DNA of 37,764 bases. Source: Candidatus Parcubacteria bacterium. Its GTDB lineage: Bacteria > Patescibacteriota > Minisyncoccia > SW-4-49-11. The DNA lies in the NCBI GenBank assembly GCA_041177485.1, contig JBEDBC010000029.1, forward strand, positions 1-37,764. Reading direction: 5' to 3'. The notes under the pieces are model-generated. The model worked only from the letters and a program-made list of their open reading frames with translations. It ran no database searches and was not told the DNA's origin. The position numbers and the translations under genes are program-made. Every line of letters starts with the position of its first letter. Position 1 is the first letter of the stretch. This document shows positions 7,483 through 31,140 of the stretch, piece by piece.

Positions 7483-7532
7483 ATATTTCAAATGTATGAT
7501 ATAATAAAAATACTATAATAAAATATATAAAA

Positions 7533-11517: not shown

Positions 11518-11687
11518 ATTTATGTATAATATTATATTTGTTACATTATAGCATAAAAATAAAATAATTCACAATTTGAACTTGTAAGATGGAGAGTTTT
11601 ATATTTCTATACTCCCTTGGGGGATACAAATTTCAAACTACAATCAACCCCCATTCAGCTAGGAGCCCCACTACGAAAGTGAAAATA

Positions 11688-14564
11688 CTAATCTATAACT
11701 TGAATTGAGACGGTAATTATGTCTTGTTCTAATTTGAAAGTTTGGGTATTCTCTAGTCCTTCTAGTGTTTGGAATTGCCACTCTATTACTCCGACTGGTT
11801 GACTGATAGTGTCTTGATATTTTTGGATTAGAGTTTTTATATCTTCTGTAGCCTGTATAGTGAGTTTGATATTTTGCTCTTTTGATAATTTGGAGTTTTT
11901 GCGGGTAATTTGTAGGTTTCGAATTAACTCTCTGACTAATCCTTCTTCTTTGAGCTGAGGGGTGATTGTATCATCTAGACTCAACACTAGTCCTTGATAT
12001 TCAATCTTATTGTCTGAAACTTTTTGGAATAAGACTTCTTTGACATTAATCTCGGTCTTGATAATCTCTTGCATCCAAGGCTCTAAATCTAGACCTTCTA
12101 TACCCATCGATTGTAAGGGTTGTCTGACTTTGATGGCTGAGACTTCTCTTAACTTGAATCCTTGCTCGAGAATTCCTTTGACTTGCTCTACCTTTTCTAA
12201 TAATTTATTGTCTATCTCTACCTCATATTCTGGATAAGTGCTCAAGTGAATTGACTCTACTACTTGCTGGTTCTGACTGACTACTAACTCTTGATATAAA
12301 TATTCTGTAATAAATGGAGCAAAAGGAGCTAGGAGATGAATTAATCTCACAAAATTATTATACAGAGACTGTAAAAATTCTATGTCCCCATTGGCAAAGT
12401 CTGTTCTAGCAGTACGAATATACCATTTTGAGATGTCATCCATACAAGCCTTTATCTCACGAGTAGCTTGTGGTATACGATAATTATCTAGAGCCTGATT
12501 AACTTCAACTATGGTTTTATTCACTCTGGTGTATAACCATTGATTCTTGGGGTTTTGTGGCTGATGTTCACCAAATTCTGGTTTCCAATCTCCAAAATTA
12601 GCATAGGTCACCAAAAAGCTATACATATTCCAAAGTGGCAATAGATACTCTTGAGTAATAATCTTGACAGTTTTGGCTGAGACTGTGGTATCCTCTCCAG
12701 CTGCAATCGGAGTGGAGAAAAAGTTCAACCTCATAGCATCTGCTCCAAATTGGTCAATTAAATCGATTGGATTGGCATAGTTTTTCTTACTTTTGGATAA
12801 TTTTTGACCATCGTCTGCTAATACAAGACCATTTACAATTACATTTTTGTAACTTGGCCTATCAAATAAAGCCGTAGATAGGGCTAATAGAGAATAAAAC
12901 CAACCTCTAGTCTGATCTACTCCCTCAGCAATATATTCAGCTGGGAATTTAGCCTCAAATATTTCCTTATTCTCAAAAGGGTAATGAAATCTAGCAAAGG
13001 GCATAGCTCCAGAGTCGTACCAGACATCTAATACATCTGGAATTCGCCTATATTCTTCCCCTTCTAGACTAAAGACAATATCATCTACATAGGGGCGATG
13101 AGGGTCGGTGATTGTAACTCCTGATAACTCCTCTAACTCAGCAAAAGATCCGATAATCTTGGTCTTACCTGATTCTGATTTCCAAACTGGAAGCGGAGTC
13201 CCCCAATATCTAGTTCGGGAGATTCCCCAATCTTTGATTTCTCTGAGCCAATTTCCGAATCTACCTTCTTTGATATGTTCTGGGATCCAATTTATACCAT
13301 CATTATGAGTAGCCAATCTGTCTCTAAGAGTACTCATCGCTACATACCAAGAGGTAATTGGTTTATAAATAAGAGGGGTATTGGTTCGCCAACACATTGG
13401 TAAATCATGCTCATAATCCTCTACTTTGAATAATTTATTAGCTTGCTTTAAGTCTTCAATAATATATTTATTGGCCTTACGATAGAACATCCCGGCATAA
13501 GTAGAAATCATATCCGTAAAATCTCCTTGATCATTTAACACGTCTACCGAGACTATACCAACCTTTTGAAAAATTTCATTATCCTCCGCTCCATAAGGGG
13601 CTAGATGTACAATTCCAGTTCCTGAATCGGTAGTTACATAATCACCCTCATAAATTACAAAAGCATTTTCTTTATCTAAAAAGTAATCAAATAAAGGCTT
13701 ATAAGTCTTACCTAATAAATCTTGTCCTTTATATTCAGCTAGTACGGTGTACTCTTCCCCAAAAATACTCTGAGCTAAATCTCGAGCCACTATGTATTGT
13801 TCTTCTGTATTAGGGATAGAAACTTTGATATAGTCAATTTGCTTATTGACCGCTAAGGCAAAGTTAGTCGGCAATGTCCAAGGAGTAGTAGTCCAAGCTA
13901 ATACAAAAGTATTCGGGCTATCTGTGAGCTCAAATTTGATTGTAACAGCCGGGTCAATTTGTTTTTTATAACCTCCTAGAGCAACCTCAGCATTGGAAAG
14001 AGTTGTCCCTGCTCGAGTGGAAAAAGGCACTACTTTGAAGCCCTCATATAATAATCCCTTCTGATATAACTCAGACAAACTCCACCAAATTGATTCAATA
14101 TAATTAGCGTCCATAGTGGCATATTCCTCATCCGAATTAGTGAGTCGTCCGATTTTATACTCCAGTTCAATAATTCCCTCACGATGAGCTGAGACTGATT
14201 TCCGACAAAGTTGATTGAATTTATCTATACCATAATCTTCGATATCTTTTTTCTGCTGAAAGCCTAGTTTTTTTTCAATTTCATACTCTACTGGGATACC
14301 CTGACAATCCCAACCAAGACTGCGAGTAACTCGATAACCTTTCATAGTCCAAAGTCTTGGCATAATATCCTTGAGAGCAAAGGTCAACATATGCCCTGCA
14401 TGAGGTTCTCCATTAGCGGTAATTGGGCCATCATAAAAAGTTTTGGTTTTATCTGCTGGTCTGGTGTCAATAGACTTCTGGAGAATATTTTCTACTTTCC
14501 AAAATTCTAAAGTTTGTTTTTCTAATTCAGCAAAAGATACATTAAAGGGAGGTTTTTTGAACAT
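11688..14564 (-). CDS. ileS: isoleucine--tRNA ligase (type 2, eukaryote/archaeal-like)
   Basis: 958 aa. Has FYDGPITANGEPHAGHML (HIGH region), GWDCQGIPVEYEIEKKLG, KLSKSKKN (KMSKS) and a CP1 editing-domain-sized insert. Confidence 0.92.
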   Translation of the reverse strand: MFKKPPFNVSFAELEKQTLEFWKVENILQKSIDTRPADKTKTFYDGPITANGEPHAGHMLTFALKDIMPRLWTMKGYRVTRSLGWDCQGIPVEYEIEKKLGFQQKKDIEDYGIDKFNQLCRKSVSAHREGIIELEYKIGRLTNSDEEYATMDANYIESIWWSLSELYQKGLLYEGFKVVPFSTRAGTTLSNAEVALGGYKKQIDPAVTIKFELTDSPNTFVLAWTTTPWTLPTNFALAVNKQIDYIKVSIPNTEEQYIVARDLAQSIFGEEYTVLAEYKGQDLLGKTYKPLFDYFLDKENAFVIYEGDYVTTDSGTGIVHLAPYGAEDNEIFQKVGIVSVDVLNDQGDFTDMISTYAGMFYRKANKYIIEDLKQANKLFKVEDYEHDLPMCWRTNTPLIYKPITSWYVAMSTLRDRLATHNDGINWIPEHIKEGRFGNWLREIKDWGISRTRYWGTPLPVWKSESGKTKIIGSFAELEELSGVTITDPHRPYVDDIVFSLEGEEYRRIPDVLDVWYDSGAMPFARFHYPFENKEIFEAKFPAEYIAEGVDQTRGWFYSLLALSTALFDRPSYKNVIVNGLVLADDGQKLSKSKKNYANPIDLIDQFGADAMRLNFFSTPIAAGEDTTVSAKTVKIITQEYLLPLWNMYSFLVTYANFGDWKPEFGEHQPQNPKNQWLYTRVNKTIVEVNQALDNYRIPQATREIKACMDDISKWYIRTARTDFANGDIEFLQSLYNNFVRLIHLLAPFAPFITEYLYQELVVSQNQQVVESIHLSTYPEYEVEIDNKLLEKVEQVKGILEQGFKLREVSAIKVRQPLQSMGIEGLDLEPWMQEIIKTEINVKEVLFQKVSDNKIEYQGLVLSLDDTITPQLKEEGLVRELIRNLQITRKNSKLSKEQNIKLTIQATEDIKTLIQKYQDTISQPVGVIEWQFQTLEGLENTQTFKLEQDIITVSIQVID

Positions 14565-14815
14565 ATCGTTTTATTATATAACTAATCTATTATTAATATG
14601 TAGTTTAGCATAAGTCAGTATAGTATTCAAGATAAAACCAGTATTATGTACTAGATATAAATAATGTCTTTCGTGTTCTATAAATTTCTTTCGAGCATTG
14701 TATTGTCAAATACACAGTGAGAAAAAATTTGATAGAACTACAGAAAGACCCGATACTAGGATACATATAATATTACTTCCTTTTCAATTCACCTAAAAAA
14801 GTATATAATGTTATC

Positions 14816-14950
14816 AAGCCTTCAGAATGGGGTTGCGAAAAATTGAAACCCACCTTGACTTACAGGGAAAAATATATTATTTTCCGATGTTTATATAAAG
14901 GGATTCAGACGCAGTATGAAAATACACCGCCCCTGCATTGAGGGCTTTTT
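14816..14950 (+). ncRNA. candidate small RNA (promoter-to-terminator unit without a convincing ORF)
   Basis: TTTCAA-16-TATAAT (-10 at 14804..14809) lies upstream. Internal GGGTT/AACCC hairpin (about 14829..14851). Weak terminator GCCC...GGGC plus TTTTT at 14929..14950. Only 12-23-codon ORFs inside. Confidence 0.2.
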
Positions 14951-14958
14951 ATATTGAG

Positions 14959-14993
14959 AAAATAAAAAAGCCGAGCTACAGGGTAGTCGGGCT
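14959..14993 (-). terminator. rho-independent terminator of the 56-aa Cys-rich gene
   Basis: Roughly 10-bp bulged GC-rich hairpin (14969..14993) followed on the minus strand by TTTTTTATTTT. Confidence 0.6.
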
Positions 14994-15012
14994 TTGAAAA
15001 GAAACAGTTTGC

Positions 15013-15183
15013 TCAAGGCAAACTGTATACACATGTTGGTAACTCCTGACTATCATCTGAAAAGAATCCCTCCATCTCTTTACGTAATGCTCTTCTTTGA
15101 GCGGCACACTCACCCTCAGGACATTGACACCATTCCCCACCTCCTTCGCCATTGAAAGTGCAAGTATGTGGAATTGTGGACAT
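15013..15183 (-). CDS. 56-aa cysteine-rich small protein (unannotated, below the ORF-track size cutoff)
   Basis: Own translation: MSTIPHTCTFNGEGGGEWCQCPEGECAAQRRALRKEMEGFFSDDSQELPTCVYSLP. Framed by a perfect consensus promoter and an intrinsic terminator. Locally higher G+C than the flanks. Confidence 0.55.
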   Translation of the reverse strand: MSTIPHTCTFNGEGGGEWCQCPEGECAAQRRALRKEMEGFFSDDSQELPTCVYSLP

Positions 15184-15211
15184 TGAAGTCAATCCAATCA
15201 GAACATTCCCA

Positions 15212-15239
15212 ATTATACTACGCTCAATAAATCTGTCAA
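15212..15239 (-). promoter_or_regulatory. consensus sigma70 promoter of the Cys-rich small gene
   Basis: Minus strand reads TTGACA (15239..15234), a 16-nt spacer, then TATAAT (15217..15212). About 28 nt upstream of ATG 15183. Confidence 0.7.
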
Positions 15240-15252
15240 GACTAGTTAAATT

Positions 15253-15281
15253 TTGTTTCCTTTCAAGCTATATGATATAAT
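15253..15281 (+). promoter_or_regulatory. rfbC promoter with extended -10
   Basis: TTGTTT (15253..15258), 17-nt spacer, TGaTATAAT (-10 at 15276..15281). Only 8 nt separate the -10 box from ATG 15290, implying a leaderless or near-leaderless mRNA. Confidence 0.6.
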
Positions 15282-15289
15282 TATTATAT

Positions 15290-15838
15290 ATGAAAATTAT
15301 ACAAACTAAAATTAAGGATTTATTAATTATAGAGCCTCAAGTTTTTGAGGATAGTCGTGGTTATTTTGTGGAAACCTATAATCAGTCTAAATTTGAGGCT
15401 CATGGTCTTGATTATACTTTTATTCAAGATAATCAATCATTCTCTCAATATGGGACTATTCGAGGACTACACTTTCAAACTGGAGATTATGCCCAAGCGA
15501 AATTGGTCCGCGCTGTACAGGGAAAAGTTTTAGATGTAGCTGTGGATTTGAGGAAAAATTCTCCCACTCTTGGGCAATATGTGGCAGTAGAATTATCTGA
15601 TAAGAACTTTAGACAATTACTAATTCCCAGAGGCTTTGCTCATGGGTTTGCTGTTATTTCTAAGACGGCAATTTTTACTTATAAATGTGATAATGTATAT
15701 AATAAAGATGCAGAAGCTGGGATTTTATTCTCCGATGAGACTCTTAATATTGATTGGAGCATTCCAGCTGAGAATCAAATTATCTCAGACAAAGATCAAA
15801 ACTGGCCAACTTTAGTAGAATATTTAGCAAAAATATGA
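15290..15838 (+). CDS. rfbC: dTDP-4-dehydrorhamnose 3,5-epimerase
   Basis: 182 aa. FEDSRGYFVETY, RGLHFQ and PRGFAHGF are hallmark RmlC cupin motifs. Confidence 0.9.
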   Translation: MKIIQTKIKDLLIIEPQVFEDSRGYFVETYNQSKFEAHGLDYTFIQDNQSFSQYGTIRGLHFQTGDYAQAKLVRAVQGKVLDVAVDLRKNSPTLGQYVAVELSDKNFRQLLIPRGFAHGFAVISKTAIFTYKCDNVYNKDAEAGILFSDETLNIDWSIPAENQIISDKDQNWPTLVEYLAKI

Positions 15839-17194: not shown

Positions 17195-17235
17195 ATTTTT
17201 ATGTTATAATATTAGTATAATTAATTATAACACAT

Positions 17236-19312: not shown

Positions 19313-19600
19313 CTATGCCCCAAAAATTTTGACATGGAGGCGGGTACTTTTACTGCCCGTATATGGCTTTTTCTTTTTTGGGGCATTGACAAGAGCTTCT
19401 TGTTTGCTAAGCTCTTGTGCCCTAACTAAAACCCATTGCACTAAATCTACAGGGCAATATACGATATTAATCTCGTCGACCCTATCAAAAGGAACTATAT
19501 GTCCTACACAAGACTCGCTACATTGACGTTTTCTCCAGTATCCTTTTTTTCTCGATGAATTCCAAGTAGGTCGATCTAAAAGAATAGAACTAGTAGTCAT
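19313..19600 (-). CDS. hypothetical basic small protein
   Basis: 95-aa ORF with its own TTGACA-17-TGtTATATA promoter and a terminator. No family recognised. Confidence 0.45.
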   Translation of the reverse strand: MTTSSILLDRPTWNSSRKKGYWRKRQCSESCVGHIVPFDRVDEINIVYCPVDLVQWVLVRAQELSKQEALVNAPKKKKPYTGSKSTRLHVKIFGA

Positions 19601-19624
19601 CTACTTTAAGCAGATTCAATACCT

Positions 19625-19653
19625 TATATAACATATTCCCAAACATTTGTCAA
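19625..19653 (-). promoter_or_regulatory. sigma70 promoter with extended -10
   Basis: Minus strand reads TTGACA (19653..19648), a 17-nt spacer, then TGtTATATA (-10 at 19630..19625). Confidence 0.65.
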
Positions 19654-19682
19654 TTATTAAATACAAAATATAATTTTGAAAC

Positions 19683-19711
19683 AAAAAAGCCCCTGCTCAT
19701 AGAGCGTGGGC
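19683..19711 (-). terminator. terminator downstream of the GGPP synthase gene
   Basis: GCCCctGCTC-atag-GAGCgtGGGC hairpin followed on the minus strand by TTTTTT. Confidence 0.55.
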
Positions 19712-19724
19712 TGAGAAAGTTGAG

Positions 19725-20576
19725 TCAGTTGTCCCGACTCGTTATGTAATCAGCCAAAGCCAATAGTGGTTTTGCTCTTTCATCCCAAGGAGCTAATGCC
19801 TCCTTAGCCTTTAGTATCAACGCCTTGGCCCGCTGTCGAGACCCATCAAGCCCAAATAACTTGGGATATGTTGTCTTATCAGCAGTCAAATCCTTGCCGG
19901 CGGTTTTGACAAATATATCGCTAATGGCATTAAAATCGAGAATATCGTCAGTAATTTGGAAAGCTAGACAAATACAACTAGCATACACTCTCAGAGCCTC
20001 CACCATATCGTTGTTTGCACCTCCAATAATGGCTCCACTGACCACACTAGCCTGTAAAAGTGCTCCAGTCTTATGAATATGGATGTACTCAAGTGTATCA
20101 ATGTCTACCTCATTGCCTTCACATTCCAAACCCACCACCTGGCCACCCATTAGCCCCCTAGCACCAGAGGCAAGCGAAAGCTCACCAACTACAGCAAGCA
20201 ATCGCTCGGCTGGAACATCAGTACTATTTAAAGCCACCATCTCAAAGGCTCTGGCGAACAGAGTATTGCCGGCTAGAATTGCATTAGCCTCACCATATAC
20301 CTTATGGTTAGTGGGTCGGCCACGACGCAAGTCAGAATTATCTATTGGGGGTAGGTCGTCGTGTATCAGCGACATTGTATGAATCATCTCAATTGCCACA
20401 GCCGTGGGCATGGCTAGAGTAGGATTCCCTCCAGCTAGCTCACAAGCTGCCAAGCAAAGAATCGGCCGAAGTCTCTTACCACCAGCCAGTAGTGAATAAC
20501 TCATCGCTTCCCTGAGTTTTTCGGGAAACTCGGTTTTTGTACCTAGCGAGGTGTCAAGGGCTTCCTCCACCTGCAA
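19725..20576 (-). CDS. crtE: geranylgeranyl diphosphate synthase, cyanobacterial/plastid type; possibly N-terminally truncated or pseudogenised
   Basis: 283 aa. Contains LLAGGKRLRPILCLAACEL, EMIHTMSLIHDDLP (first Asp-rich motif), HKTGALL, FQITDDILD (second Asp-rich motif), KTAGKDL and a C-terminus LLALADYITSRDN. The open frame begins at TTG. The homologous frame continues upstream to ATG 20645 but is interrupted by TAA at 20615..20613. G+C is clearly higher than the rest of the window. Confidence 0.8.
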   Translation of the reverse strand: MQVEEALDTSLGTKTEFPEKLREAMSYSLLAGGKRLRPILCLAACELAGGNPTLAMPTAVAIEMIHTMSLIHDDLPPIDNSDLRRGRPTNHKVYGEANAILAGNTLFARAFEMVALNSTDVPAERLLAVVGELSLASGARGLMGGQVVGLECEGNEVDIDTLEYIHIHKTGALLQASVVSGAIIGGANNDMVEALRVYASCICLAFQITDDILDFNAISDIFVKTAGKDLTADKTTYPKLFGLDGSRQRAKALILKAKEALAPWDERAKPLLALADYITSRDN

Positions 20577-20750
20577 CCGAGTTGTTTCTAGATAAGTGGC
20601 GAAATTAAATTGTTAATTTTGTTGAGCCAGTTTTTTCTGAGCCATAGTAAAGAGCTCCCTCTCGCCTGAGCGAGAATAGATTGACCCTAAACTTATAACA
20701 CAGTCTCCACTTTTTGTCTATGCTGGGGTTTCGTCTCGCTGGGTTGTGCT

Positions 20751-20926
20751 TTTCGTAGGGGCGACCTTTGTTCTAAAAATTCCCCTCTTGAGGGGTAGAT
20801 TTCTGCTATGTTTATATAGCGGGAAGACGGGGTGGAGTGTTTTTGGGCTATTTATAAATACTTTATTCCACCCCGTCAGGAAAGCCTGCCACCCCTCAAG
20901 AGGGGAATTAGCTCATCATCGCCCCC
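20751..20926. repeat. GC-rich nested-palindrome repeat, copy R1 (full length)
   Basis: Three nested inverted repeats. Outer pair: GGGGCGACC (about 20757) and ATCGCCCCCC (20917..20926). A and A' arms: AATTCCCCTCTTGAGGGGT (20778..20796) and CACCCCTCAAGAGGGGAATT (20890..20909). B and B' arms: GACGGGGTGGAGT (20827..20839) and ATTCCACCCCGTC (20866..20878). Near-identical copies occur at 27016.. and 31141... Confidence 0.9.
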
Positions 20927-20983
20927 CTTTCTCATTGAATAAAATCCCATACTTTGCTATAATTAGCTTAATATATAGCTTAA

Positions 20984-20989
20984 TATAAT
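20984..20989 (+). promoter_or_regulatory. -10 box (TATAAT) 6 nt upstream of the valS start codon
   Basis: TATAAT at 20984..20989, then caaact, then ATG 20996. No Shine-Dalgarno sequence, consistent with a leaderless transcript. Confidence 0.4.
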
Positions 20990-20995
20990 CAAACT

Positions 20996-24953: not shown

Positions 24954-25298
24954 TTCGTAGGGGCGACCTTACAGTCGCCTGTAAGTCCTCCTCAGCCGTC
25001 GCAAATAGGATTTGCTCCTATGAAACCTCACGGTTTCCCAACCTTCCTCCACGGGAAAACTACCGTTTTTCCGACCCCTTTCCCGTGACACCCACCTCCT
25101 AAATAAATATAGGAGGAACTTAAAGTCGCCCCAAGGGAGGACAAAATAACTGTCCCTCGCTGGCGAGGGTGGCACGGAGTGCCGGGTGTGGACTGAGTTT
25201 TTAATTCATAATTTCAAATTATTCCACCCCGTCAAGAAAATAGTAATCCACCCCCCCCTTCGGGGACTCCCTCCAAAGGGAGAAAATAAACCTCAAAC
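24954..25298. repeat. composite GC-rich hairpin-dense repeat block, copy R3
   Basis: - Starts with TTCGTAGGGGCGACC, the same 5' module as R1 and R4.
- Contains module GGAGGACAAAATAACTGTCCCTCGCTGGCGAGGGTG (25136..25171), which is the reverse complement (34/36) of 27241..27276.
- Contains a 33-nt exact direct copy of 27322..27354 at 25202..25234.
- Carries many short GC hairpins. Confidence 0.85.
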
Positions 25299-26069
25299 CT
25301 ACTTTTCGTTTCCAAAGTAGTACAATCTATACCCCCACATCCAATATCCCACTCCAGCCAATACCAGCCACCAAAACCCAAGCCAAGCTGAGATCCCAAT
25401 CCAAAAGCTCAAGCTCCAGAAACCAGACAAACTAAGCCAATAACTAATATTATTAGCTATTTGTTTGTGATTTAGGAATAGAAGATAAAATCCAGCAAAG
25501 GAGATAATACTAGTCACCATCCAACCAAAGAAATTCATCAAAGGCACTCCATAATACCAACCCTGAATTTCCCACACCCAAAAACCTAAAGCCGTGGCCC
25601 CTGGATCAAGAATCAAATCAAAAGTCGTCATCAAAATAGCTCCAATGATAGTGTTGAGCCAAACTTTCTTGATTTGTAGCCTACTCACCAATACCAAACT
25701 AAAGAAAAAAATTGGCACCCAAGATAAACTCACTGTCCAAGGTACTAACCCGAAGACTTTAAGATTGCCAAGCACCTCACCATATACAAAATTACTATAT
25801 GGCCAACCGGTAGCGATAGCAAAAGATTCTATCAGAAGTGGATAGCTGAATATAATTAGTATTTTCCACCAATCTTGCCTCAAATCAAACCACTTAGATA
25901 GTCCGTATAATATGGGAAAAGCAATCAAAACATTAGTCACCTGCGAGATGGCTTGGAATATCCAAAAAGGAAAAGGTAAGGCTTCTGGCCTCAAACTAAA
26001 ATATACTACAAAGAATCCACTCAGGATTAAGATAATGGCTGGAATAATTAGTAATAATTTTTTCTGCAT
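25299..26069 (-). CDS. cruF: CruF-family carotenoid 1,2-hydratase-like membrane protein (DUF422 / 'carotenoid biosynthesis protein')
   Basis: 256 aa with about 7 TM helices. Motifs LILDPGATALGFWVWE and YYGVPLMNFFGWM match my recollection of the PF04240/CruF family. Adjacent to a lyeJ-like prenyltransferase and a CrtI-family desaturase. Confidence 0.7.
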   Translation of the reverse strand: MQKKLLLIIPAIILILSGFFVVYFSLRPEALPFPFWIFQAISQVTNVLIAFPILYGLSKWFDLRQDWWKILIIFSYPLLIESFAIATGWPYSNFVYGEVLGNLKVFGLVPWTVSLSWVPIFFFSLVLVSRLQIKKVWLNTIIGAILMTTFDLILDPGATALGFWVWEIQGWYYGVPLMNFFGWMVTSIISFAGFYLLFLNHKQIANNISYWLSLSGFWSLSFWIGISAWLGFWWLVLAGVGYWMWGYRLYYFGNEK

Positions 26070-26103
26070 ATATGATATACTTAGATTATATAATTATATC
26101 ACA

Positions 26104-26943
26104 ATGAGTATTGCTAAACTATTACAAATTTCCAGACCCAGATTTTGGATTTATCTCTTGGGGCCTTATTTGATTGGGAGTATTCTTGGCTTTGACCCGA
26201 TGCAAATTATCTGGCAATGGCAATTTTGGCTTGGATTTGTATATTTTAACCTACCTGCTAATCTTTTGATTTATGGAGTCAATGATATTTTTGATTATGA
26301 GACTGACAAACTCAATCCAAAAAAACAAAATTATGAAGCCCTAGTCACTCCGGCTGAGCATATTTCTCTTTGGACTTGGATTATACTTACTAATATTCCT
26401 TTTATTCTAGCTATATATTTGCTAAACCCTTTGACTTTATTTGGTTGGCTTGGATTTATTATCTTGGGGGTGCAATATTCAGCTTGGCCAATTCGGGCTA
26501 AGGCGAAGCCATTTTTGGATTCTATTTTTAATATTTTATATATTTTTCCTGGAGTAATTGGATATACTCTCTTAGCTAATAAACTCAATCTAGACTGGAA
26601 ATTATTATTAAGTGCTGGATTATGGACTATGGCTATGCATACTTATTCAGCTATCCCAGATATTGAGGCTGATAGGGCGAGCCATACCACCACTATTGCA
26701 ACTGTACTGGGAGCTAAGTTGACCTTGGTGTATTGTTTTATCTGCTATACTCTAGCTGGAATTTTGTTAGCTCAATTTAGCACCCCACTTGGGATTATAA
26801 TTGCTATTGTATATGGATTTATGATTGGCTTTAGTTGGTCTCAAAATACCGCTAAAATATTCAGATTATACACCTATTTCCCAGCCTTAAACACAGTAAT
26901 TGGCTTGCTTTTATTCTGGAGCATAGTGATTTGGTATAGGTAG
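26104..26943 (+). CDS. lyeJ: UbiA-family prenyltransferase, lycopene elongase/hydratase (LyeJ)-like
   Basis: I trimmed the track ORF 25912.. to ATG 26104. 279 aa. SRPRFWIYLLGPYL, LPANLLIYGVNDIFDYETDKLNPKK (Asp-rich motif), YSAWPIRAKAKPFLDS and MHTYSAIPDIEADR match motifs I recall from haloarchaeal lycopene elongase. Confidence 0.7.
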   Translation: MSIAKLLQISRPRFWIYLLGPYLIGSILGFDPMQIIWQWQFWLGFVYFNLPANLLIYGVNDIFDYETDKLNPKKQNYEALVTPAEHISLWTWIILTNIPFILAIYLLNPLTLFGWLGFIILGVQYSAWPIRAKAKPFLDSIFNILYIFPGVIGYTLLANKLNLDWKLLLSAGLWTMAMHTYSAIPDIEADRASHTTTIATVLGAKLTLVYCFICYTLAGILLAQFSTPLGIIIAIVYGFMIGFSWSQNTAKIFRLYTYFPALNTVIGLLLFWSIVIWYR

Positions 26944-27015
26944 TTTATTATGTTATAAATCTCTTTTAGGGCTTTTAGTCCCTCCTATTATTTCTTTTAA
27001 AGAGATATTAGGAGG

Positions 27016-27392
27016 GGGGGCGATCTTTGTTCTAAAAATTCCCCTCTTGAGGGGTGGATTCATGCTATGTTTATATAGAAGGGAGACGGGGTGGAGTGTT
27101 TTAAATCTATTTATAAATACTCCACCCCGTCAGGCAAGCCTGACCACCCCTCAAGAGGGGAATTTAGCTCAGTCCCTAAACTAGACAGAGTAGACTTTGA
27201 TATATATATTTTGCCTATCCACACCCGTCGACTTCGTCTACACCCTCGCCAGCGAGGGACAGTTTTATTGTCCTCCTTTGGAGGAGGTGGCACCTTAGGT
27301 GACGGAGGAGGACAAAATATATAATTCATAATTTCAAATTATTCCACCCCGTCAGGCAAGCCTGCCACCCCTCAAGAGGGGAATTTAGCTCA
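27016..27392. repeat. GC-rich nested-palindrome repeat, copy R2 (full unit 27016..27175) plus extension modules and a half unit (27341..27392)
   Basis: A arm at 27037..27057, B at 27085..27097, B' at 27121..27131, A' at 27145..27165. These are followed by module CACCCTCGCCAGCGAGGGACAGTTTTATTGTCCTCC (27241..27276), the TTGTCCTCC...GGAGGACAA inverted repeat, and a second B'-A' half ending 3 nt from the crtI-family stop codon. Confidence 0.9.
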
Positions 27393-27394
27393 AT

Positions 27395-28897
27395 CTAACT
27401 CTCTCCTCTCAGTGGGCTGTCTTGTTTGATTTTAGCTATTCTTTTATAGACCATCTCAGCACTAATTAGTTGGATGGGTACTCCAATTCCTGGATTGGTT
27501 CCTGCTCCGACATAGTATAGATTTTTGACTTTTTTGGAATAATTATTAGGTCTAAATATTGCAGTTTGATTAATAGTATGAGCAAGCCCAAGAGCTGTAC
27601 CCTGATAGGCATTATAATCTTGCTTAAAGTCTTTGACACTATATAGTCTTTTATAAATAATTCTCTGTTGCAAGTTTGGGATATTCATCTCCTCTTGCAT
27701 AATGGTAAGCACCTTATCAGCATAGGCTTCTAATTGCTCCTCGGTATACTCGAGTCCAGCTGCAATCGGAACAAGTACAAATAAATTCTCATCAGTAGCT
27801 GGAGCAACACTAGGGTCGGTCTTGGATGGAGCACAGACATATAGAGACGGGTCTTCCGGCCACATTGGATCATCAAAAATTTGCTTGAAGTTTGTCCTCC
27901 AATCCTGAGAGAATAAGAGGTTATGATGTACTAGGCTATCCACTTTACCTTTGATTCCTAGATACATAATAAGTGCTGAAGGGGCTAGAACTTTTTTATC
28001 CCAATATTTCTCATCATATTGGCGATACTGGGATGGTAGCAGATTTAATTCGGTATGAGTCATATCGGCATTAGATACCACGATATCTGCTTTTACAATT
28101 TCTCTAGACTCAAGCTCTACACCTATCGCCTTACCATTTTTTACAATAATTTGTCTCGCTCCATTGCCACTGACCAAATTTACTCCATTTTTCTTGGCGA
28201 TATTGACCAGAGCTTCAGTAATTGTATACATACCACCTTGTGGGTAAAAAACACCCATATTAAAGTCAATATGATTCATAATACTATATAGAGCTGGAGT
28301 ATTATATGGAGAGCTACCCAGGAAAACTAGAGGGTATTGGAGAATTTTTTTGACTAAGTCATTTTTGAAATATTTGCTCACATAGGCATCCATATTACTA
28401 AAGACAGATAATTTGGAGCCTTCTATCATAGTTCTGAAGTTTATAAAGTCAAAGATAGAGTCATAATTTTTATACATAAATCCATCTTTGGCAATTTCAT
28501 ATTGCTGGCGGGCTTTATCTAAATATTCCCTGAGTCTGTCTCCAGCGCCTGGCTCTAAATCTTCCAAAACTGGGATATCTCGCTCTAGATCGGAGAACAT
28601 ATCGATAATTTTGTTATCATCTTTGAAAAATATCCGATAAGATGGCTCCAAGCGAATCAAGTCCAAGTGATCCTCTACCTTCTCCCCCATAAATTCAAAA
28701 AAATTCTCGAATACATCAGGCATCAGATACCAAGATGGCCCCATATCAAACTTGAATCCCTCAACCTCAAAGATATTAGCTCGTCCTCCTAAATTAGAGT
28801 TTTTCTCATATAGACTAACTTCATATCCTTTTTTGGCTAAGATACAAGCAGTGGCTAGCCCCCCAATTCCCCCACCGATAATAATTACTTTTTGCAT
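27395..28897 (-). CDS. crtI: phytoene desaturase-family FAD oxidoreductase (CrtI/CrtD type; by context possibly a carotenoid 3,4-desaturase)
   Basis: 500 aa. N-terminal FAD fold VIIIGGGIGGLATA...YEKNSNLGGR, FDMGPSWYLMPDVFE, and C-terminal YYVGAGTNPGIGVP are typical of the CrtI family. Confidence 0.85.
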   Translation of the reverse strand: MQKVIIIGGGIGGLATACILAKKGYEVSLYEKNSNLGGRANIFEVEGFKFDMGPSWYLMPDVFENFFEFMGEKVEDHLDLIRLEPSYRIFFKDDNKIIDMFSDLERDIPVLEDLEPGAGDRLREYLDKARQQYEIAKDGFMYKNYDSIFDFINFRTMIEGSKLSVFSNMDAYVSKYFKNDLVKKILQYPLVFLGSSPYNTPALYSIMNHIDFNMGVFYPQGGMYTITEALVNIAKKNGVNLVSGNGARQIIVKNGKAIGVELESREIVKADIVVSNADMTHTELNLLPSQYRQYDEKYWDKKVLAPSALIMYLGIKGKVDSLVHHNLLFSQDWRTNFKQIFDDPMWPEDPSLYVCAPSKTDPSVAPATDENLFVLVPIAAGLEYTEEQLEAYADKVLTIMQEEMNIPNLQQRIIYKRLYSVKDFKQDYNAYQGTALGLAHTINQTAIFRPNNYSKKVKNLYYVGAGTNPGIGVPIQLISAEMVYKRIAKIKQDSPLRGES

Positions 28898-28927
28898 ATT
28901 TGAAACAATTTAACTTAATTTACGTAT

Positions 28928-28936
28928 ATTATAACA
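28928..28936 (-). promoter_or_regulatory. extended -10 promoter element of the crtI-family gene
   Basis: Minus strand reads TGTTATAAT (28936..28928), about 30 nt upstream of ATG 28897. Confidence 0.5.
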
Positions 28937-28956
28937 TAAATTTAAGAGTAAAACTA

Positions 28957-28965
28957 TGCTATAAT
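28957..28965 (+). promoter_or_regulatory. extended -10 promoter element of the small membrane-protein gene
   Basis: TGcTATAAT (28957..28965). A GGAG lies just upstream of the ATG pair at 28985/28991. Confidence 0.5.
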
Positions 28966-28990
28966 ATATTTATCCTTTCTGGAGATGTTT

Positions 28991-29179
28991 ATGGATTGGA
29001 AGATTTTGCTAGGAGCTTCAATTATCTTGTTTATATCTACTGGAATAAGTTTCAGAGCACATCTACATACCCCTCTGAAAAGAAGAACTGAAGGAGGCTT
29101 TCAACCTTTTACTTTTTTTCTTCTATTAGCTTCGGGGGCCTTAATCGCCTCAATCTTGTTCTTTTTTTTTGATAATTAG
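28991..29179 (+). CDS. small two-TM membrane protein (62 aa; an alternative start at 28985 gives 64 aa)
   Basis: MDWKILLGASIILFISTGISF...FFLLLASGALIASILFFFF gives two hydrophobic helices. It has its own extended -10 promoter and a strong terminator, and is divergent from the crtI-family gene. Confidence 0.5.
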   Translation: MDWKILLGASIILFISTGISFRAHLHTPLKRRTEGGFQPFTFFLLLASGALIASILFFFFDN

Positions 29180-29202
29180 ATATCTTATCATCGCACACTA
29201 AA

Positions 29203-29238
29203 AGCCTCGGGGGACATCATCCACGAGGCTTGTTTTTT
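29203..29238 (+). terminator. rho-independent terminator
   Basis: AGCCTCG-N14-CGAGGCT stem followed by TGTTTTTT. Confidence 0.65.
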
Positions 29239-29285
29239 CATAAACAAAAAGATTTGGTTATATACATATAGTTAATAGCTTGCAT

Positions 29286-29315
29286 TTGCATAATTAGCTA
29301 ACTTTATGGTATATA
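29286..29315 (+). promoter_or_regulatory. sigma70 promoter with extended -10
   Basis: TTGCAT (29286..29291), 18-nt spacer, TGgTATATA (-10 at 29310..29315). Confidence 0.55.
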
Positions 29316-29343
29316 TAAAAAGCCTTTGTTTTCACTAAGTACA

Positions 29344-29499
29344 ATGAGTGATCAAACCTTCCAAAGAGCTAAGTACAAGATTGCAATTCATAAGAGTATA
29401 GGGAAATCTTGGCATACTGTATTCTCTACGATGGATGAGGCTGCTCAATCTTGGTTGGATTACCAAACACAAAAAAGCCCAACATCTATTGAAGAATGA
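29344..29499 (+). CDS. 51-aa small protein (unannotated; replaces antisense track ORF 29335..29541)
   Basis: Own translation: MSDQTFQRAKYKIAIHKSIGKSWHTVFSTMDEAAQSWLDYQTQKSPTSIEE. It has a plus-strand promoter upstream and a plus-strand terminator downstream. The sequence has the flavour of small beta-beta-alpha proteins, but this is not a confident family call. Confidence 0.5.
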   Translation: MSDQTFQRAKYKIAIHKSIGKSWHTVFSTMDEAAQSWLDYQTQKSPTSIEE

Positions 29500-29582
29500 T
29501 TCAATACAGTAAACCCAGGGGCATTTCCCTATGTATCTCACCCTATGAGATTATAGAAATTATGTGCCTAATTCAAAATATA

Positions 29583-29609
29583 TGAGATAGCTAGATCTAT
29601 CTCATTTTT
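29583..29609 (+). terminator. rho-independent terminator
   Basis: TGAGATAG-ctagat-CTATCTCA, a perfect 8-bp stem, followed by TTTTT. Confidence 0.65.
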
Positions 29610-29613
29610 ATAT

Positions 29614-29640
29614 AAAAGCACCCCGTACAGAGTACAGGGG
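29614..29640 (-). terminator. terminator of the 30099-to-29672 two-gene unit
   Basis: CCCCGTAC / GTAC(A)GGGG bulged stem followed on the minus strand by TGCTTTTATA. Confidence 0.5.
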
Positions 29641-29671
29641 GAATAAGGAATAAGGAATTATGAATTTAGGT

Positions 29672-29917
29672 TCAACGAAATTTAGAACGGATTGTTCGCA
29701 TCTTGCGTAGTAATACATACCACACACTAATTCGAAATCCATTAAGCTCTAATATTGCTATTTTATAATTGTTCTCCAGATTTAAAAAGTATCGATCAAA
29801 CTTGTCTGGATCTTCAGAATATAATCTATCCAAACTTAACAATCTACAATCCTCAATTTGTGACTTCAGATATCTAAACAGTTGTCTAATTTTGACAAAG
29901 TTAGATTGTGATTTCAT
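29672..29917 (-). CDS. orphan small protein (81 aa)
   Basis: ORF coupled by an ATGA overlap to the upstream small TM-protein gene. No family recognised. Confidence 0.45.
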   Translation of the reverse strand: MKSQSNFVKIRQLFRYLKSQIEDCRLLSLDRLYSEDPDKFDRYFLNLENNYKIAILELNGFRISVWYVLLRKMRTIRSKFR

Positions 29918-30099
29918 GTTAAAATTCTAACAATTGAGGAATTTTTATTGTCGTTTTTATCTTGTTGCCAAGCTAAAAGAGCTATACCAAGTCCTGACAC
30001 TAGTAAGAGCATTAATACACTAGCACATGCACCAATGAAACTGATTCTAGATTGTGGTTGAGGTTGATTCGACATAACAAGATAAATGTCGAGGTACAT
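29914..30099 (-). CDS. orphan small single-TM protein (61 aa; an alternative start at Met9, position 30075)
   Basis: Hydrophobic helix ISFIGACASVLMLLLVSGLGIALLAW. The promoter's -10 box ends only 4 nt before ATG 30099, so the internal start may be the one used. Confidence 0.45.
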   Translation of the reverse strand: MYLDIYLVMSNQPQPQSRISFIGACASVLMLLLVSGLGIALLAWQQDKNDNKNSSIVRILT

Positions 30100-30103
30100 A
30101 TTT

Positions 30104-30132
30104 TATATAACATATCTCTAAAAATAAGACAA
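30104..30132 (-). promoter_or_regulatory. sigma70 promoter with extended -10
   Basis: Minus strand reads TTGTCT (30132..30127), a 17-nt spacer, then TGtTATATA (-10 at 30109..30104). Confidence 0.6.
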
Positions 30133-30138
30133 GTAATT

Positions 30139-30166
30139 AAAAATCTGGCAACAGTGTGTGCCAGAT
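30139..30166 (-). terminator. rho-independent terminator
   Basis: ATCTGGCA-N8-TGCCAGAT, a perfect 8-bp stem, followed on the minus strand by TTTTT. Confidence 0.65.
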
Positions 30167-30176
30167 TTTAAAGTTA

Positions 30177-30359
30177 TTATTGACCAGACATAATATCTGG
30201 TGGATTATTTAGATGCAAAAGTTGGCTTCTCTCATTTTCTGCTCTTCTTCTATCCTTTTGTATTTGCATGATTCCACGCGTAATAACTCTACTCACAGTT
30301 GGATCCTGGAGAAATTTTTTAAACATAGTCCCAAAATCTGATGCTGGGTACTCCACCAT
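30177..30359 (-). CDS. orphan small protein (60 aa)
   Basis: I trimmed the track ORF from its GTG start at 30386 to ATG 30359 (MVEYPASDF...). AAGAGG lies 6 nt upstream. A TTGACA-16-TGaTAATAT promoter lies upstream. Confidence 0.5.
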   Translation of the reverse strand: MVEYPASDFGTMFKKFLQDPTVSRVITRGIMQIQKDRRRAENERSQLLHLNNPPDIMSGQ

Positions 30360-30387
30360 AAGACCTCTTAGAAGATAGGCAAACACA

Positions 30388-30415
30388 ATATTATCACAAC
30401 CATAAAATTTGTCAA
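30388..30415 (-). promoter_or_regulatory. sigma70 promoter with extended -10
   Basis: Minus strand reads TTGACA (30415..30410), a 16-nt spacer, then TGaTAATAT (-10 at 30393..30388). Confidence 0.65.
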
Positions 30416-30425
30416 GAGTATATAT

Positions 30426-30453
30426 GAAACCCCCCGCAGTTTACCTACGGGGG
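30426..30453 (-). terminator. candidate terminator
   Basis: CCCCCG-N11-CGGGGG stem followed on the minus strand by a weak T-run (TTTCAT). Confidence 0.4.
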
Positions 30454-30471
30454 CGATAAAAACACAAGACA

Positions 30472-30735
30472 TTATTGCCAACATGGACCCCATCTTTGAT
30501 ACCAATTCTTCTGCCTCATTAAATAGCATTTTGCCTTTGGGTTATCTGGTGATGGAAAAGTTGGAGCACTTAAAGATTTAATTATATTATTGACTATATG
30601 TGAATTTGAATTCGCCATAGTTGGAGTATAGACCATAAATCCTAACACTCCAACCAATAATAACACATATTTAAGCCTTGTCATTTTACTGACTCGGCGG
30701 GGAAGAAAACAATTTGAAAGATCATGATCTTCCAT
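30472..30735 (-). CDS. small secreted protein/peptide precursor (87 aa; start possibly Met18)
   Basis: Signal-peptide-like MTRLKYVLLLVGVLGFMVYTPTMA. The mature part ends in a W/K/R-rich segment bracketed by two Cys (KCYLMRQKNWYQRWGPCWQ). Confidence 0.5.
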   Translation of the reverse strand: MEDHDLSNCFLPRRVSKMTRLKYVLLLVGVLGFMVYTPTMANSNSHIVNNIIKSLSAPTFPSPDNPKAKCYLMRQKNWYQRWGPCWQ

Positions 30736-30761
30736 AAAATTTGACAGCAGAGGTCGACATA

Positions 30762-30790
30762 TTTATAACATATCTAAAAAACTTTGTAAA
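30762..30790 (-). promoter_or_regulatory. sigma70 promoter with extended -10
   Basis: Minus strand reads TTTACA (30790..30785), a 17-nt spacer, then TGtTATAAA (-10 at 30767..30762). Confidence 0.6.
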
Positions 30791-30809
30791 GTCTAATTTG
30801 ACAAATTAG

Positions 30810-31058
30810 ATGATTTTGGGTATTGTGAATGAGTCTTTTTGGGAGATTATTTTGCAAATTCAGGAGCTGGAAATTAGCATCAAAAGGATTCAAGCTAGAA
30901 TTAGATTTTTAAGAAAAAATATATTAAAAAATCATAATCTAAAAGTAAAAATTGAATCTTTGAAACAAAAAATCAATGATCTACTACAGTTAGAAGATGA
31001 CTGGCTAACAGTACATTATAGCGAAGCAAGGTATATCCATGAAAAAGCAAATCACTGA
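30810..31058 (+). CDS. orphan coiled-coil-like small protein (82 aa)
   Basis: Heptad-like charged/hydrophobic pattern (ELEISIKRIQARIRFLRKNILKNHNLKVKIESLKQKINDLLQLE). Followed by a strong terminator. Start and promoter are not well defined. Confidence 0.45.
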   Translation: MILGIVNESFWEIILQIQELEISIKRIQARIRFLRKNILKNHNLKVKIESLKQKINDLLQLEDDWLTVHYSEARYIHEKANH

Positions 31059-31061
31059 TCT

Positions 31062-31100
31062 AACCCCACCCCCGACTTTGGAGGTGGGGTTCTAAGTTTT
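31062..31100 (+). terminator. rho-independent terminator
   Basis: AACCCCACC-N12-GGTGGGGTT, a perfect 9-bp stem, followed by CTAAGTTTT. Confidence 0.6.
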
Positions 31101-31140
31101 ATGTAGAGGAGGTTAAAATTAAGTTTAATCTGTGATAGTA

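Follow-up and report, generated by a model that had tools for sequence, protein, structure and literature searches.

Organisation of the crtE-like locus

The stretch of DNA analysed here (37,764 nt, referred to as the window) has a GC content of 35.9%. One ORF, crtE-like and located on the minus strand at 19725-20576, has 47.5% GC and a GC3 of 0.415, the top GC value among window ORFs (z = 3.8 for GC and 2.8 for GC3, against means of 35.1%, sd 3.0, and 0.288, sd 0.041, for the remaining 25 ORFs). The ancestral frame, 19725-20645, has 46.6% GC. The original prediction had placed a GC-rich island at 19.69-20.75 kb and proposed such a windowed comparison; the GC excess was recovered, but the right end lies further out, the GC-rich block spanning about 19672 to 20925 and including a 121-nt leader and a 159-nt repeat. 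The features of the locus are:

19601-19671, minus strand: native promoter block of a small Cys-motif ORF, conserved; left edge of the insertion site
19672-20925, unstranded: inserted cassette of 1254 nt, 46.7% GC, composed of terminator, crtE-like CDS, leader and repeat; absent in syntenic relatives (alignment A1 with L090, L091 and L092)
19689-19705, minus strand: intrinsic-terminator-like hairpin followed by six T, directly past the stop codon (z = -3.0)
19725-20576, minus strand: mechanical ORF from TTG, 283 aa, whose product would be without the first half of helix A
19725-20645, minus strand: ancestral full-length crtE-like frame, 306 codons plus stop, broken at codon 11 (intact alleles P0001-P0006 and P0511: 304-307 aa)
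20613-20615, minus strand: in-frame TAA, codon 11; TCA (Ser) in a 99.3%-identical allele, TAA also in JGI contig L093
20646-20766, minus strand: leader, 49.6% GC, with a Shine-Dalgarno-like GAGGGAG at 20655-20661, 9 nt ahead of the ATG
20767-20925, unstranded: MITE-like GC-rich interspersed element, 159 nt, present at the crtE site only in the window/L086/L093 lineage
20926-20995, plus strand: native ValRS promoter block (TTGAAT, 17 nt, TATAAT at 20935-20963), conserved; right edge of the insertion site
25299-28897, unstranded: native carotenoid cluster (CruF-like, UbiA/LyeJ-like prenyltransferase, bifunctional desaturase CrtID), found in relatives whether or not they carry the crtE cassette

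The frame is as originally described: the ORF list gives an open frame from TTG 20576, and upstream the same frame runs from ATG 20645 through AQKKLAQQN to the TAA at 20615-20613 and then QFNFATYLETTR. Public annotations (NCBI, JGI) start at GTG 20570 and give a 281-aa product. No Shine-Dalgarno-like motif is found upstream of TTG 20576, and the start is ATG in 25/25 other window ORFs; host genes do not carry such a motif, unlike the crtE leader with its GAGGGAG. As a separate observation that speaks against decay, bacteria are known to reinitiate translation past an early stop, and the 281-aa gene is the call made by public pipelines. Reassignment of the stop codon was rejected: no stop is used more often in the window than TAA, which terminates 13 of its 26 ORFs, and all conserved genes translate normally in table 11.

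Three syntenic relatives (L090, L091 and L092) have an empty site, with the same gene order and no crtE, and the cassette sits between two conserved back-to-back promoters. The repeat at which the island had been said to end directly is real (20767-20925), but the 121-nt leader lies between it and the ATG. Other window copies of this MITE-like repeat are found near 25.0-25.3, 27.0-27.4 and 31.15-31.3 kb; its motif recurs in L090, one of the relatives with an empty site, and none of the cyanobacterial loci has it. No integrase or transposase was found in or beside the cassette, the repeat analysis reported no direct repeats (target-site duplications) at its edges, and the promoter scan found no sigma-70-like promoter for the cassette itself. 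No homology was found between leader, 3' UTR or repeat and cyanobacterial loci, so a cyanobacterial origin of the untranslated regions cannot be shown. A viral origin or vehicle was rejected, with no relative in IMG/VR and INPHARED matches at 43% identity or less that are ispA-like.

A chimeric GC-rich block or cyanobacterial contamination, together with a sequencing error at the TAA, would fit the sharp-edged jump in composition and the abundance of cyanobacteria in the same sample type. However, at least five independent assemblies (ENA, Logan, JGI) place the gene at one and the same syntenic position, and no cyanobacterial sequence exceeds 70% nucleotide identity. The TAA is real, since it recurs in the independent JGI assembly, contig L093, which is 99.87% identical and has 25 other differences from the window. 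A chimeric assembly was rejected on these grounds, and we consider an artefact of any of these kinds extremely improbable.

The window ORF belongs with picocyanobacterial CrtE

The crtE-like ORF matched PF00348 with E = 9e-54. Outside its own clade, the top matches were CrtE proteins of Cyanobium, Synechococcus and Prochlorococcus, at 72-76% identity, in line with the similarity to cyanobacterial GGPPS noticed originally, and the top solved structures were cyanobacterial CrtE 7MY6 and 7MY7 (E = 1e-104). [quoted passage not shown] The predicted model gave TM 0.79-0.81 to 7MY7 and 7MXZ, with a pLDDT of only 73.9, low around the FARM loop. The window ORF is, as judged by sequence, a picocyanobacterial-type CrtE of the type-II GGPP synthase family.

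The CPR gene shares with cyanobacterial CrtE (S. elongatus/Synechocystis 7MY6, 7MY7, 7MY0; Synechococcus sp. PCC 7002 6SXL) the PF00348 fold, with 55-57% identity to the structures, a type-II FARM with its two-residue insertion preceded by Met and Ser chain-length-determining residues, the CxxxC motif CLAAC, the SARM and the IPP-binding residues. Unlike cyanobacterial CrtE, it resides in Patescibacteria. For its intact sister allele P0001, the score of 433.7 bits falls short of the NCBIfam CrtE equivalog cut-off of 460 (NF045685), and only the NCBIfam FPP-synthase subfamily cut-off is passed (342 vs 275). Further differences are an Asn at the equivalent of dimer-contact Asp121 in every CPR allele, allele-by-allele loss of Mg/water-network residues, an omega about 4 times higher and, in the window copy, the stop at codon 11.

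Catalytic residues are eroded throughout the CPR clade

Conservation was scored in two sets, one of 114 sequences from picocyanobacteria and one of 150 diverse representatives (mutual identity of 50% or less). All four positions named as conserved in the original prediction turned out to be so, each being invariant (100%) in the picocyanobacterial set: DNDD to DNSD is D104S (D in 95% of the diverse set), ILAGD to ILAGN is D127N (98%), VVDLE to VVGLE is D172G (98%) and ELGKTAGKD to IFVKTAGKD is G246V (G in 95%). A fifth change, G226C, had been missed; G is found there in 100% of picocyanobacterial and 99% of diverse sequences. The positions concerned, with the aspartate-rich motifs, are:

19908-19970, minus strand: region containing the intact SARM D233-D237 (sequence alignment)
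20130-20132, minus strand: G172, at the Asp of the GQxxD motif; equivalent to Asp166 of Synechococcus elongatus CrtE (SeCrtE)
20265-20267, minus strand: N127 (ILAGD to ILAGN), equivalent to SeCrtE Asp121; changed in every known CPR allele
20334-20336, minus strand: S104, equivalent to SeCrtE Asp98
20340-20360, minus strand: FARM DDLPPID, first aspartate-rich motif, intact here with Mg ligands D96 and D102 retained

In SeCrtE, Asp98 coordinates MgB via water, Asp166 forms a water bridge to MgA and Asp121 makes a hydrophilic dimer-interface contact with His89 (PMC9796789). The second-shell Mg/water-network set (SeCrtE Asp98, Gln163, Asp166 and Lys187) together with the invariant G226 and G246 is thus not complete in the window (S104, G172, C226, V246), where the ancestral residues are conserved at 95-100% among the 264 homologues. 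Two observations speak against decay. D127N lies not at the metal site but at the dimer interface, and Asn could still hydrogen-bond. Moreover, both Mg-ligand aspartates, the SARM and every basic residue for IPP binding are retained in the window allele.

Across 63 ultra-conserved columns, CPR alleles deviate at 3-8 and picocyanobacteria at 0-1. Four alleles (the window's, P0001, P0002 and P0511) have an intact set of FARM Mg ligands, SARM, KT motif and IPP-binding residues, whereas Mg ligands are lost in four alleles, P0003-P0005 (E96, Y102) and P0006 (Y96). The interface helix is changed from GDALLTRAF to GNTLFARAF in all CPR alleles, including the Asp121-His89 contact residue. Judged from these alignments, erosion of catalytic residues is a trait of the whole CPR clade and not of the window copy alone. 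The Mg2+/water-network residues would have been lost independently in different alleles, which suggests that most CPR alleles are probably poor or inactive as synthases.

The gene might instead still encode a working short-chain prenyl diphosphate synthase, translated in the window from TTG 20576 or GTG 20570, with changes that are tolerated or alter product length. The four alleles with intact metal- and substrate-binding motifs fit this reading, as do P0002, which deviates at just 3 of the 63 columns, the predicted fold (TM 0.8 to CrtE), the 281-aa gene called by NCBI and JGI and the FPP-synthase cut-off that is passed. Nevertheless, D172 and D104 (equivalents of Asp166, 98-100% conserved, and Asp98, 95-100%) are both lost in the window, and G226C and G246V affect glycines with 99% and 95% conservation in the diverse set. 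All 264 homologues and the solved structures have helix A, the restart codon is non-ATG and lacks a ribosome-binding-like motif where 25/25 ORFs start with ATG, and four other alleles are without Mg ligands. We therefore regard a working enzyme as rather unlikely. The restart product would be short of half of helix A, would carry S104, N127, G172, C226 and V246, and would be unlikely to make GGPP.

Selection and probable pseudogenisation

CPR crtE shows a dN/dS of 0.25-0.30 (about 0.3); the cyanobacterial median is 0.072, and the flanking genes range from 0.04 to 0.2. Polarised nonsynonymous changes comprise 68 GC-to-AT vs 23 AT-to-GC. Neutrality is rejected clade-wide (pN/pS 0.34, p ~1e-18), and one nonsense mutation was observed where about 21 would be expected under neutrality. 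In the P0003-P0005 clade, 17 nonsynonymous vs 13 synonymous changes followed the loss of the Mg ligands (p = 0.017); since selection is still acting there, simple decay does not describe the family.

One could propose that the family has become a non-catalytic, regulatory partner, as is the case for the small subunits of plant GGPPS and for the GGPPS recruiting protein (GRP). The fold and the remodelled interface helix would be kept to bind another prenyl diphosphate synthase (of the CPR bacterium or of its host) or a carotenoid enzyme, altering flux or chain length, and the window copy would be a recent loss of function. Consistent with this, the ORF is intact in 9/10 alleles with omega near 0.3 despite the loss of Mg ligands (D96E/D96Y, D102Y), the interface-helix change with its Asp121-His89 contact is common to all alleles, and the CxxxC motif, needed for pairing of large and small subunits (PMC9796789), is retained as CLAAC. 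Plants provide established examples of inactive homologues regulating active members of this enzyme family (PMC6651613); there, SSU-I and SSU-II/GRP (3KRA chains B/C, 5XN6 chain C) are cyanobacterial-type GGPPS homologues without catalytic competence that keep the fold; the CPR gene likewise keeps the first CxxxC. Unlike the plant GGPPS/GPPS small subunits, the CPR clade is not orthologous to them but branches with picocyanobacterial CrtE, lacks the second CxxxC, retains the SARM and is eroded in an allele-specific manner, as drift rather than a single adaptive shift predicts. Moreover, no partner subunit is encoded within the window, close relatives with the same carotenoid cluster do without the gene, it was lost again by nonsense mutation in the window population, and an omega of 0.3 fits equally well the slow loss of a weakly useful enzyme. 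A regulatory role thus appears improbable. A more specific version, in which a Patescibacteria episymbiont of picocyanobacteria keeps a catalytically disabled copy of its host's homodimeric GGPP synthase, its dimer interface remodelled, under purifying selection, as a modifier or poison subunit that would pair with an active synthase of its own or of the host and redirect isoprenoid flux to the symbiont's C50 carotenoid or lipid-carrier needs, seems to us very improbable. If a modifier subunit were nevertheless involved, it would be a bacterial parallel to the plant GGPPS small subunits.

The reading that we favour is erosion of an acquired enzyme, with loss of function in the window. For the tips leading to the window allele and P0001, the count was 5 nonsynonymous and 1 nonsense vs 1 synonymous change, a comparison resting on 7 changes in total (p = 0.05 vs omega 0.3). 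The original description of the gene as N-terminally truncated or decaying agrees with the TAA in L093, the TCA in the closest allele and the five altered, otherwise invariant residues. The TAA would have arisen in the window's population by a C-to-A change at Ser11 (TCA), and the window copy is, in our judgement, probably a young pseudogene.

Horizontal acquisition and spread by recombination

The best named matches of UvrA and ValRS are from Patescibacteria (55-61% identity), and a sister genome assembled from a metagenome bears the name Candidatus Parcubacteria bacterium. Acquisition of crtE from picocyanobacteria by Patescibacteria is supported by the contrast between this CPR host and the picocyanobacterial grouping of the gene, by the empty sites, by the deviant composition and by a dS lower than that of the flanks. 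The original prediction of a recent, not yet ameliorated horizontal acquisition is correct as to horizontal origin; "recent" and "unameliorated" overstate the case, since the event can be called recent only when set against the divergence from the relatives with an empty site. Sampled cyanobacterial genes reach at most about 70% identity at the nucleotide level and 76% at the protein level, and the ten alleles have diverged to 80% identity within the CPR clade. The gene is largely ameliorated: the closest genes from freshwater Cyanobium have a GC3 of 0.85-0.96, far above its own 0.40. That third codon positions are still ameliorating is unsupported: changes there comprise 47 GC-to-AT vs 43 AT-to-GC, with an implied equilibrium GC3 of about 0.40, above the host value of 0.29. 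We thus find it rather likely that the transfer is old-ish and lineage-specific, and that the gene has evolved under relaxed selection and was freshly pseudogenised here.

Empty-site genomes fall outside the filled clade in flanking-gene comparisons. The window and L086 are 99.3% identical over the cassette and only 60-86% past the stop codon. The dS of crtE is 0.2-0.45, compared with 0.5-1.5 in the flanks, the order being reversed for the pair L001-L087, and P0511 combines parts of other alleles in a three-way mosaic. At the sequence level, we take the spread of the cassette among CPR lineages by homologous recombination to be shown.

Known CPR alleles comprise the window and nine others, all nine intact at 304-307 aa and forming one clade. 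In a GTDB scan with P0001, all matches were cyanobacterial and none exceeded 75% identity, with the CPR allele in no species representative. Among the matches listed in the JGI metagenome scan, cyanobacterial genes reached at most 74%, and no additional CPR alleles or pseudogenised copies were present.

Carotenoid context and possible partners

CrtID of the native carotenoid cluster scored 648.7 against a cut-off of 640 in the NCBIfam profile search, in which the UbiA model PRK12875 was also passed. CrtI, LyeJ and CruF are kept in genomes without crtE, with CrtI 91-95% identical, which supports the view that crtE is dispensable.

Taken together, we hold it probable that a picocyanobacterial crtE cassette was acquired, spread, eroded and finally pseudogenised in the window population. 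The alignments show that the cassette of about 1.25 kb entered between the divergent ValRS and small-ORF promoters of one freshwater-type Patescibacteria sub-lineage in which a bacterioruberin-type carotenoid cluster was already present. There, crtE may have served as an accessory, dispensable GGPP source for the carotenoid pathway, and relaxed, non-zero purifying selection together with AT-biased mutation would have shaped its later evolution. The ten alleles could then be viewed as a small natural experiment in the erosion of an acquired enzyme under such a mutational bias, with second-shell and Mg-ligand residues going first while the ORF is still open.

The hosts of most CPR bacteria are, to our knowledge, unknown. 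A picocyanobacterial housekeeping gene exchanged among CPR populations would point to a physical association with picocyanobacteria, and crtE is in this respect a clue to the bacterium's partners; it does not represent a new kind of system. Genes of host origin carried by symbionts and parasites have been used in the same way to infer partners, for example in CPR-host transfer; here too a housekeeping gene has crossed phyla and its donor clade is identifiable. Evidence from fluorescence in situ hybridisation (CARD-FISH) is confined to other CPR classes (Gracilibacteria; PMC9166423).

The cassette would add the missing GGPP-supply step to the bacterioruberin-type sets of freshwater Patescibacteria, a step that appears to be optional and to be on its way out again. 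The set described for these bacteria (lyeJ, crtD and cruF; PMC9948471) is the same as that adjoining crtE at 25.3-28.9 kb. That study mentions neither a crtE nor a cyanobacterial xenolog, and the cassette is an add-on of one sub-lineage only. The bacterioruberin genes reported there are mostly scattered, whereas in the window they are clustered.

Composition and frame of the crtE-like gene

The window has a GC content of 35.9%. Among its 26 ORFs, the one at 19725-20576 (-) ranks first with 47.5% GC (GC3 0.415), compared to a mean of 35.1% (GC3 0.288) for the remaining 25. Its product is a polyprenyl synthetase (PF00348, E = 9e-54) whose nearest solved structures are those of cyanobacterial CrtE, 7MY6 and 7MY7 (E = 1e-104), and the predicted model of the 283-aa product resembles both (TM ~0.8). 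The original prediction of a GC-rich island carrying a cyanobacterial-type GGPP synthase gene is thus confirmed, as is the frame it described: TTG 20576 is the first codon of the ORF, the frame extends 5′ to ATG 20645, and TAA 20615-20613, codon 11 of the ATG 20645 frame, interrupts it. The public call of this gene starts at GTG 20570 (281 aa).

Other window genes are typical of Patescibacteria (CPR), including a 789-aa ValRS, an IleRS with DUF5915, UvrA, dTDP-rhamnose genes and a VirD4-like ATPase; for UvrA and ValRS, the top named matches come from Patescibacteria, with 55-61% identity. The ATPase (807 aa, 1194-3617 (-)) resembles VirD4/TraG/TrwB type IV coupling proteins (PF10412, PF12696) and might have a part in exchanging DNA or proteins with a host. 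Nine further crtE alleles are known (P0001-P0006, P0511 and two near-copies of P0006), all intact and of 304-307 aa. In four other cassette-bearing loci (L001, L004, L087 and L093) the gene occupies the same position, in the order ValRS, crtE, small ORF, Grx-like, hypothetical, 6PGD and onward.

Origin and insertion site

In a neighbour-joining tree, the seven CPR alleles included, with that of the window among them, formed one clade (100% bootstrap). This clade joined Synechococcus, Cyanobium, Prochlorococcus and the Paulinella chromatophore at 100%, apart from other cyanobacteria. The closest non-CPR sequences were from freshwater Cyanobium/Synechococcus, with 75-76% protein identity and at most 70% nucleotide identity.

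Three syntenic relatives, L091, L090 and L092 (ValRS 90, 88 and 85% identical to that of the window, respectively), keep the window gene order and the CruF/UbiA/CrtI cluster, but the space separating the small ORF from ValRS is empty. Alignment of filled and empty sites placed 1254 nt (46.7% GC) of the window between two conserved blocks:

19601-19671: conserved AT-rich promoter block, one edge of the insert
20926-20995: conserved AT-rich promoter block, other edge of the insert

The insert is composed of a terminator-like hairpin, the CDS, a 121-nt leader with a GAGGGAG motif 9 nt 5′ of the ATG, and a GC-rich interspersed repeat. Since flanking genes put the empty-site genomes outside the filled clade, a single gain of the cassette is the simplest history. 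Viral database searches found no viral copy of it, and no integrase was detected in or adjoining the cassette among window ORFs and by domain search.

The picocyanobacterial affiliation of a gene in a CPR host and the empty sites support the horizontal acquisition proposed originally, with three corrections. The transfer, first described as recent, is specific to a lineage yet not very recent; the gene, rather than being unameliorated, has largely undergone amelioration (GC3 0.40 versus 0.85-0.96 in the nearest Cyanobium genes); and residue erosion is clade-wide, as described below. The cassette is a fresh example of an already known phenomenon, and the finding is of value chiefly as a pointer to a picocyanobacterial partner of this CPR lineage.

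The native neighbour of the insertion site, a small ORF (19313-19600 (-), 95 aa) found in filled and empty genomes, is fast-evolving (35-39% identity among relatives) but retains an N-terminal RPxW...YW...CxxxCxGHI(V/I)PF and a C-terminal KIFG; it matched no Pfam or NCBIfam family. Variability of the locus is highest at 19.0-19.6 kb. Downstream of ValRS, L090 carries an inserted 1136-aa MmeI/Type ISP-like restriction-modification gene (12428-15838), at the place of tRNA-Val and small ORFs in the window. This is a further indication that the surroundings of ValRS form a hotspot for accessory DNA.

Erosion of conserved residues

Conservation was assessed in 114 picocyanobacterial sequences and in 150 diverse representatives of mutual identity ≤50%. 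Conservation of the ancestral residues at the substituted positions is 100% among the picocyanobacteria and 95-99% among the diverse representatives. All four substitutions noted originally (the DNSD, ILAGN, VVGLE and IFVK sites) are present, and G226C is a fifth. They are not specific to the window copy, however: catalytic residues have eroded throughout the CPR clade. At 63 near-invariant columns in 264 homologues, CPR alleles differ at 3-8 and picocyanobacteria at 0-1, and the intact allele P0001 scores 433.7, below the NCBI CrtE equivalog cut-off of 460.

Substitutions in CPR alleles, with roles mapped onto Synechococcus elongatus CrtE (SeCrtE; PMC9796789)
D127N: Asp121, dimer-interface partner of His89; all alleles
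D96E or D96Y: Asp90, ligand of two catalytic Mg2+; P0003-P0006
D102Y: Asp96, ligand of two catalytic Mg2+; P0003-P0005
D104S: Asp98, water-mediated MgB contact; window, P0001, P0002, P0511
D172G: Asp166, water bridge to MgA; window, P0001
Q169K: Gln163, water bridge to MgA; P0006
K247N: no role given; P0006
Q230H: no role given; P0004
G55V: no role given; P0003, P0004
G226C: no role given; window, P0001, P0511
G246V: no role given; window, P0001, P0511

Selection seems relaxed, with dN/dS of 0.25-0.30 in the CPR clade versus a median of 0.072 for cyanobacterial crtE pairs and 0.04-0.2 for neighbouring CPR genes. Polarised nonsynonymous changes comprise 68 GC-to-AT versus 23 AT-to-GC, the pattern that host mutation pressure should produce in a weakly constrained gene. 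Neutrality is nevertheless rejected by a whole-tree pN/pS of 0.34 (p ~1e-18). About 21 nonsense mutations are expected under neutrality versus one observed, and in the P0003-P0005 clade, where both Mg ligands were already lost, 17 nonsynonymous versus 13 synonymous changes occurred (p = 0.017). These substitution patterns argue that the gene family is not neutral. GC3 is 0.40-0.43 in all sequenced CPR alleles; third-position changes are balanced (47 GC-to-AT versus 43 AT-to-GC), so crtE GC3 seems to stall well above the 0.29 of the host.

The interrupted window copy

The window copy differs from that of L086, another cassette-bearing locus, by five nonsynonymous changes, of which three replace Glu with Lys through G-to-A, by one nonsense change (TCA to TAA) and by a single synonymous one. 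These fit neutrality, and the departure from an omega of 0.3 is only marginal (p = 0.05). Among the stop codons of the window, TAA is used most often. An assembly error is ruled out, because the TAA is shared by the JGI contig L093, in which 25 other positions over 20.8 kb differ from the window.

Translation restarted at TTG or GTG would probably not yield a functional protein: no ribosome-binding-like motif lies upstream, the start would be non-ATG whereas all other window ORFs use ATG, and half of helix A, present in all homologues and solved structures, would be lost. Recurrence of the TAA in L093, together with five changed conserved residues, supports the earlier reading of a truncated or decaying gene.

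Exchange of the cassette among CPR lineages

The genealogy of the cassette conflicts with that of its flanks on three counts. Identity between the window and L086 is 99.3% from the repeat through the stop codon and only 60-86% directly beyond it. Between the window and L001 or L004, dS is 0.2-0.4 for crtE and 0.5-1.5 for flanking genes. Conversely, L001 and L087 have near-identical flanks (dS 0.05-0.3) and a crtE dS of 0.35 (83% protein identity). As dS was obtained by the Nei-Gojobori method (NG86) and values for the AT-rich flanks are near saturation, only their ordering is trusted. P0511 is itself a mosaic of P0002-like, P0003-like and P0001-like segments. Homologous recombination has therefore exchanged the cassette within the CPR lineage.

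Carotenoid context

A bacterioruberin-type set is clustered at 25299-28897 and conserved in 7/7 related loci examined. Its three genes encode a bifunctional desaturase CrtID (648.7 bits, cut-off 640), a UbiA/LyeJ-like prenyltransferase (PRK12875, 258.6 bits, cut-off 205) and a CruF-like protein scoring under its own cut-off. The mechanical UbiA ORF (343 aa) overlaps CruF and relatives' call is 279 aa, so its real start probably lies close to 26.1 kb. No phytoene synthase (crtB) was detected among window ORFs of at least 110 aa. Such sets have been reported in freshwater Patescibacteria, with neither crtE nor a cyanobacterial source mentioned (PMC9948471).

Since the carotenoid set is well conserved in relatives without the cassette, crtE was probably gained to supply this pathway with GGPP on an optional basis and is probably now being lost again. 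Retention of an open frame under selection after loss of catalytic residues would suit a non-catalytic role, as in plant GGPPS small subunits (PMC6651613), which we consider improbable. Loss of an optional GGPP supply is the reading we prefer.

Start sites, repeats and variable stretches

The 25 host ORFs all start with ATG, and no Shine-Dalgarno-like motif was found upstream of them in the window. A TATAAT box lies 5-12 nt upstream of the ATG in many of them (e.g. 7513-7532, 11518-11537, 17216-17235 and 20976-20995), an indication that mRNAs of this CPR lineage are leaderless or have very short leaders. The crtE cassette, with its long leader and GAGGGAG motif, is the exception among window genes.

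The remaining GC peaks in the window are explained by a family of GC-rich (~45%) interspersed elements of 110-220 nt, resembling MITEs (miniature inverted-repeat transposable elements), with internal palindromes CCCCTCAAGAGGGG and CCACCCCGTC/GACGGGGTGG:

20767-20925: MITE-like element(s)
~25000-25300: MITE-like element(s)
27026-27385: MITE-like element(s)
31150-31300: MITE-like element(s)

They bracket the CruF/UbiA genes. Among the 92 loci compared, their core motif also occurs in L090 and is absent from cyanobacterial loci.

Finally, 2.4 kb of the window (28900-31320) has no ORF of at least 110 aa. In L001 and L091, CrtI and the racemase are separated by a Polysacc_synt flippase gene, of which tblastn detected no remnant in the window; 28900-31320 is therefore a variable region.
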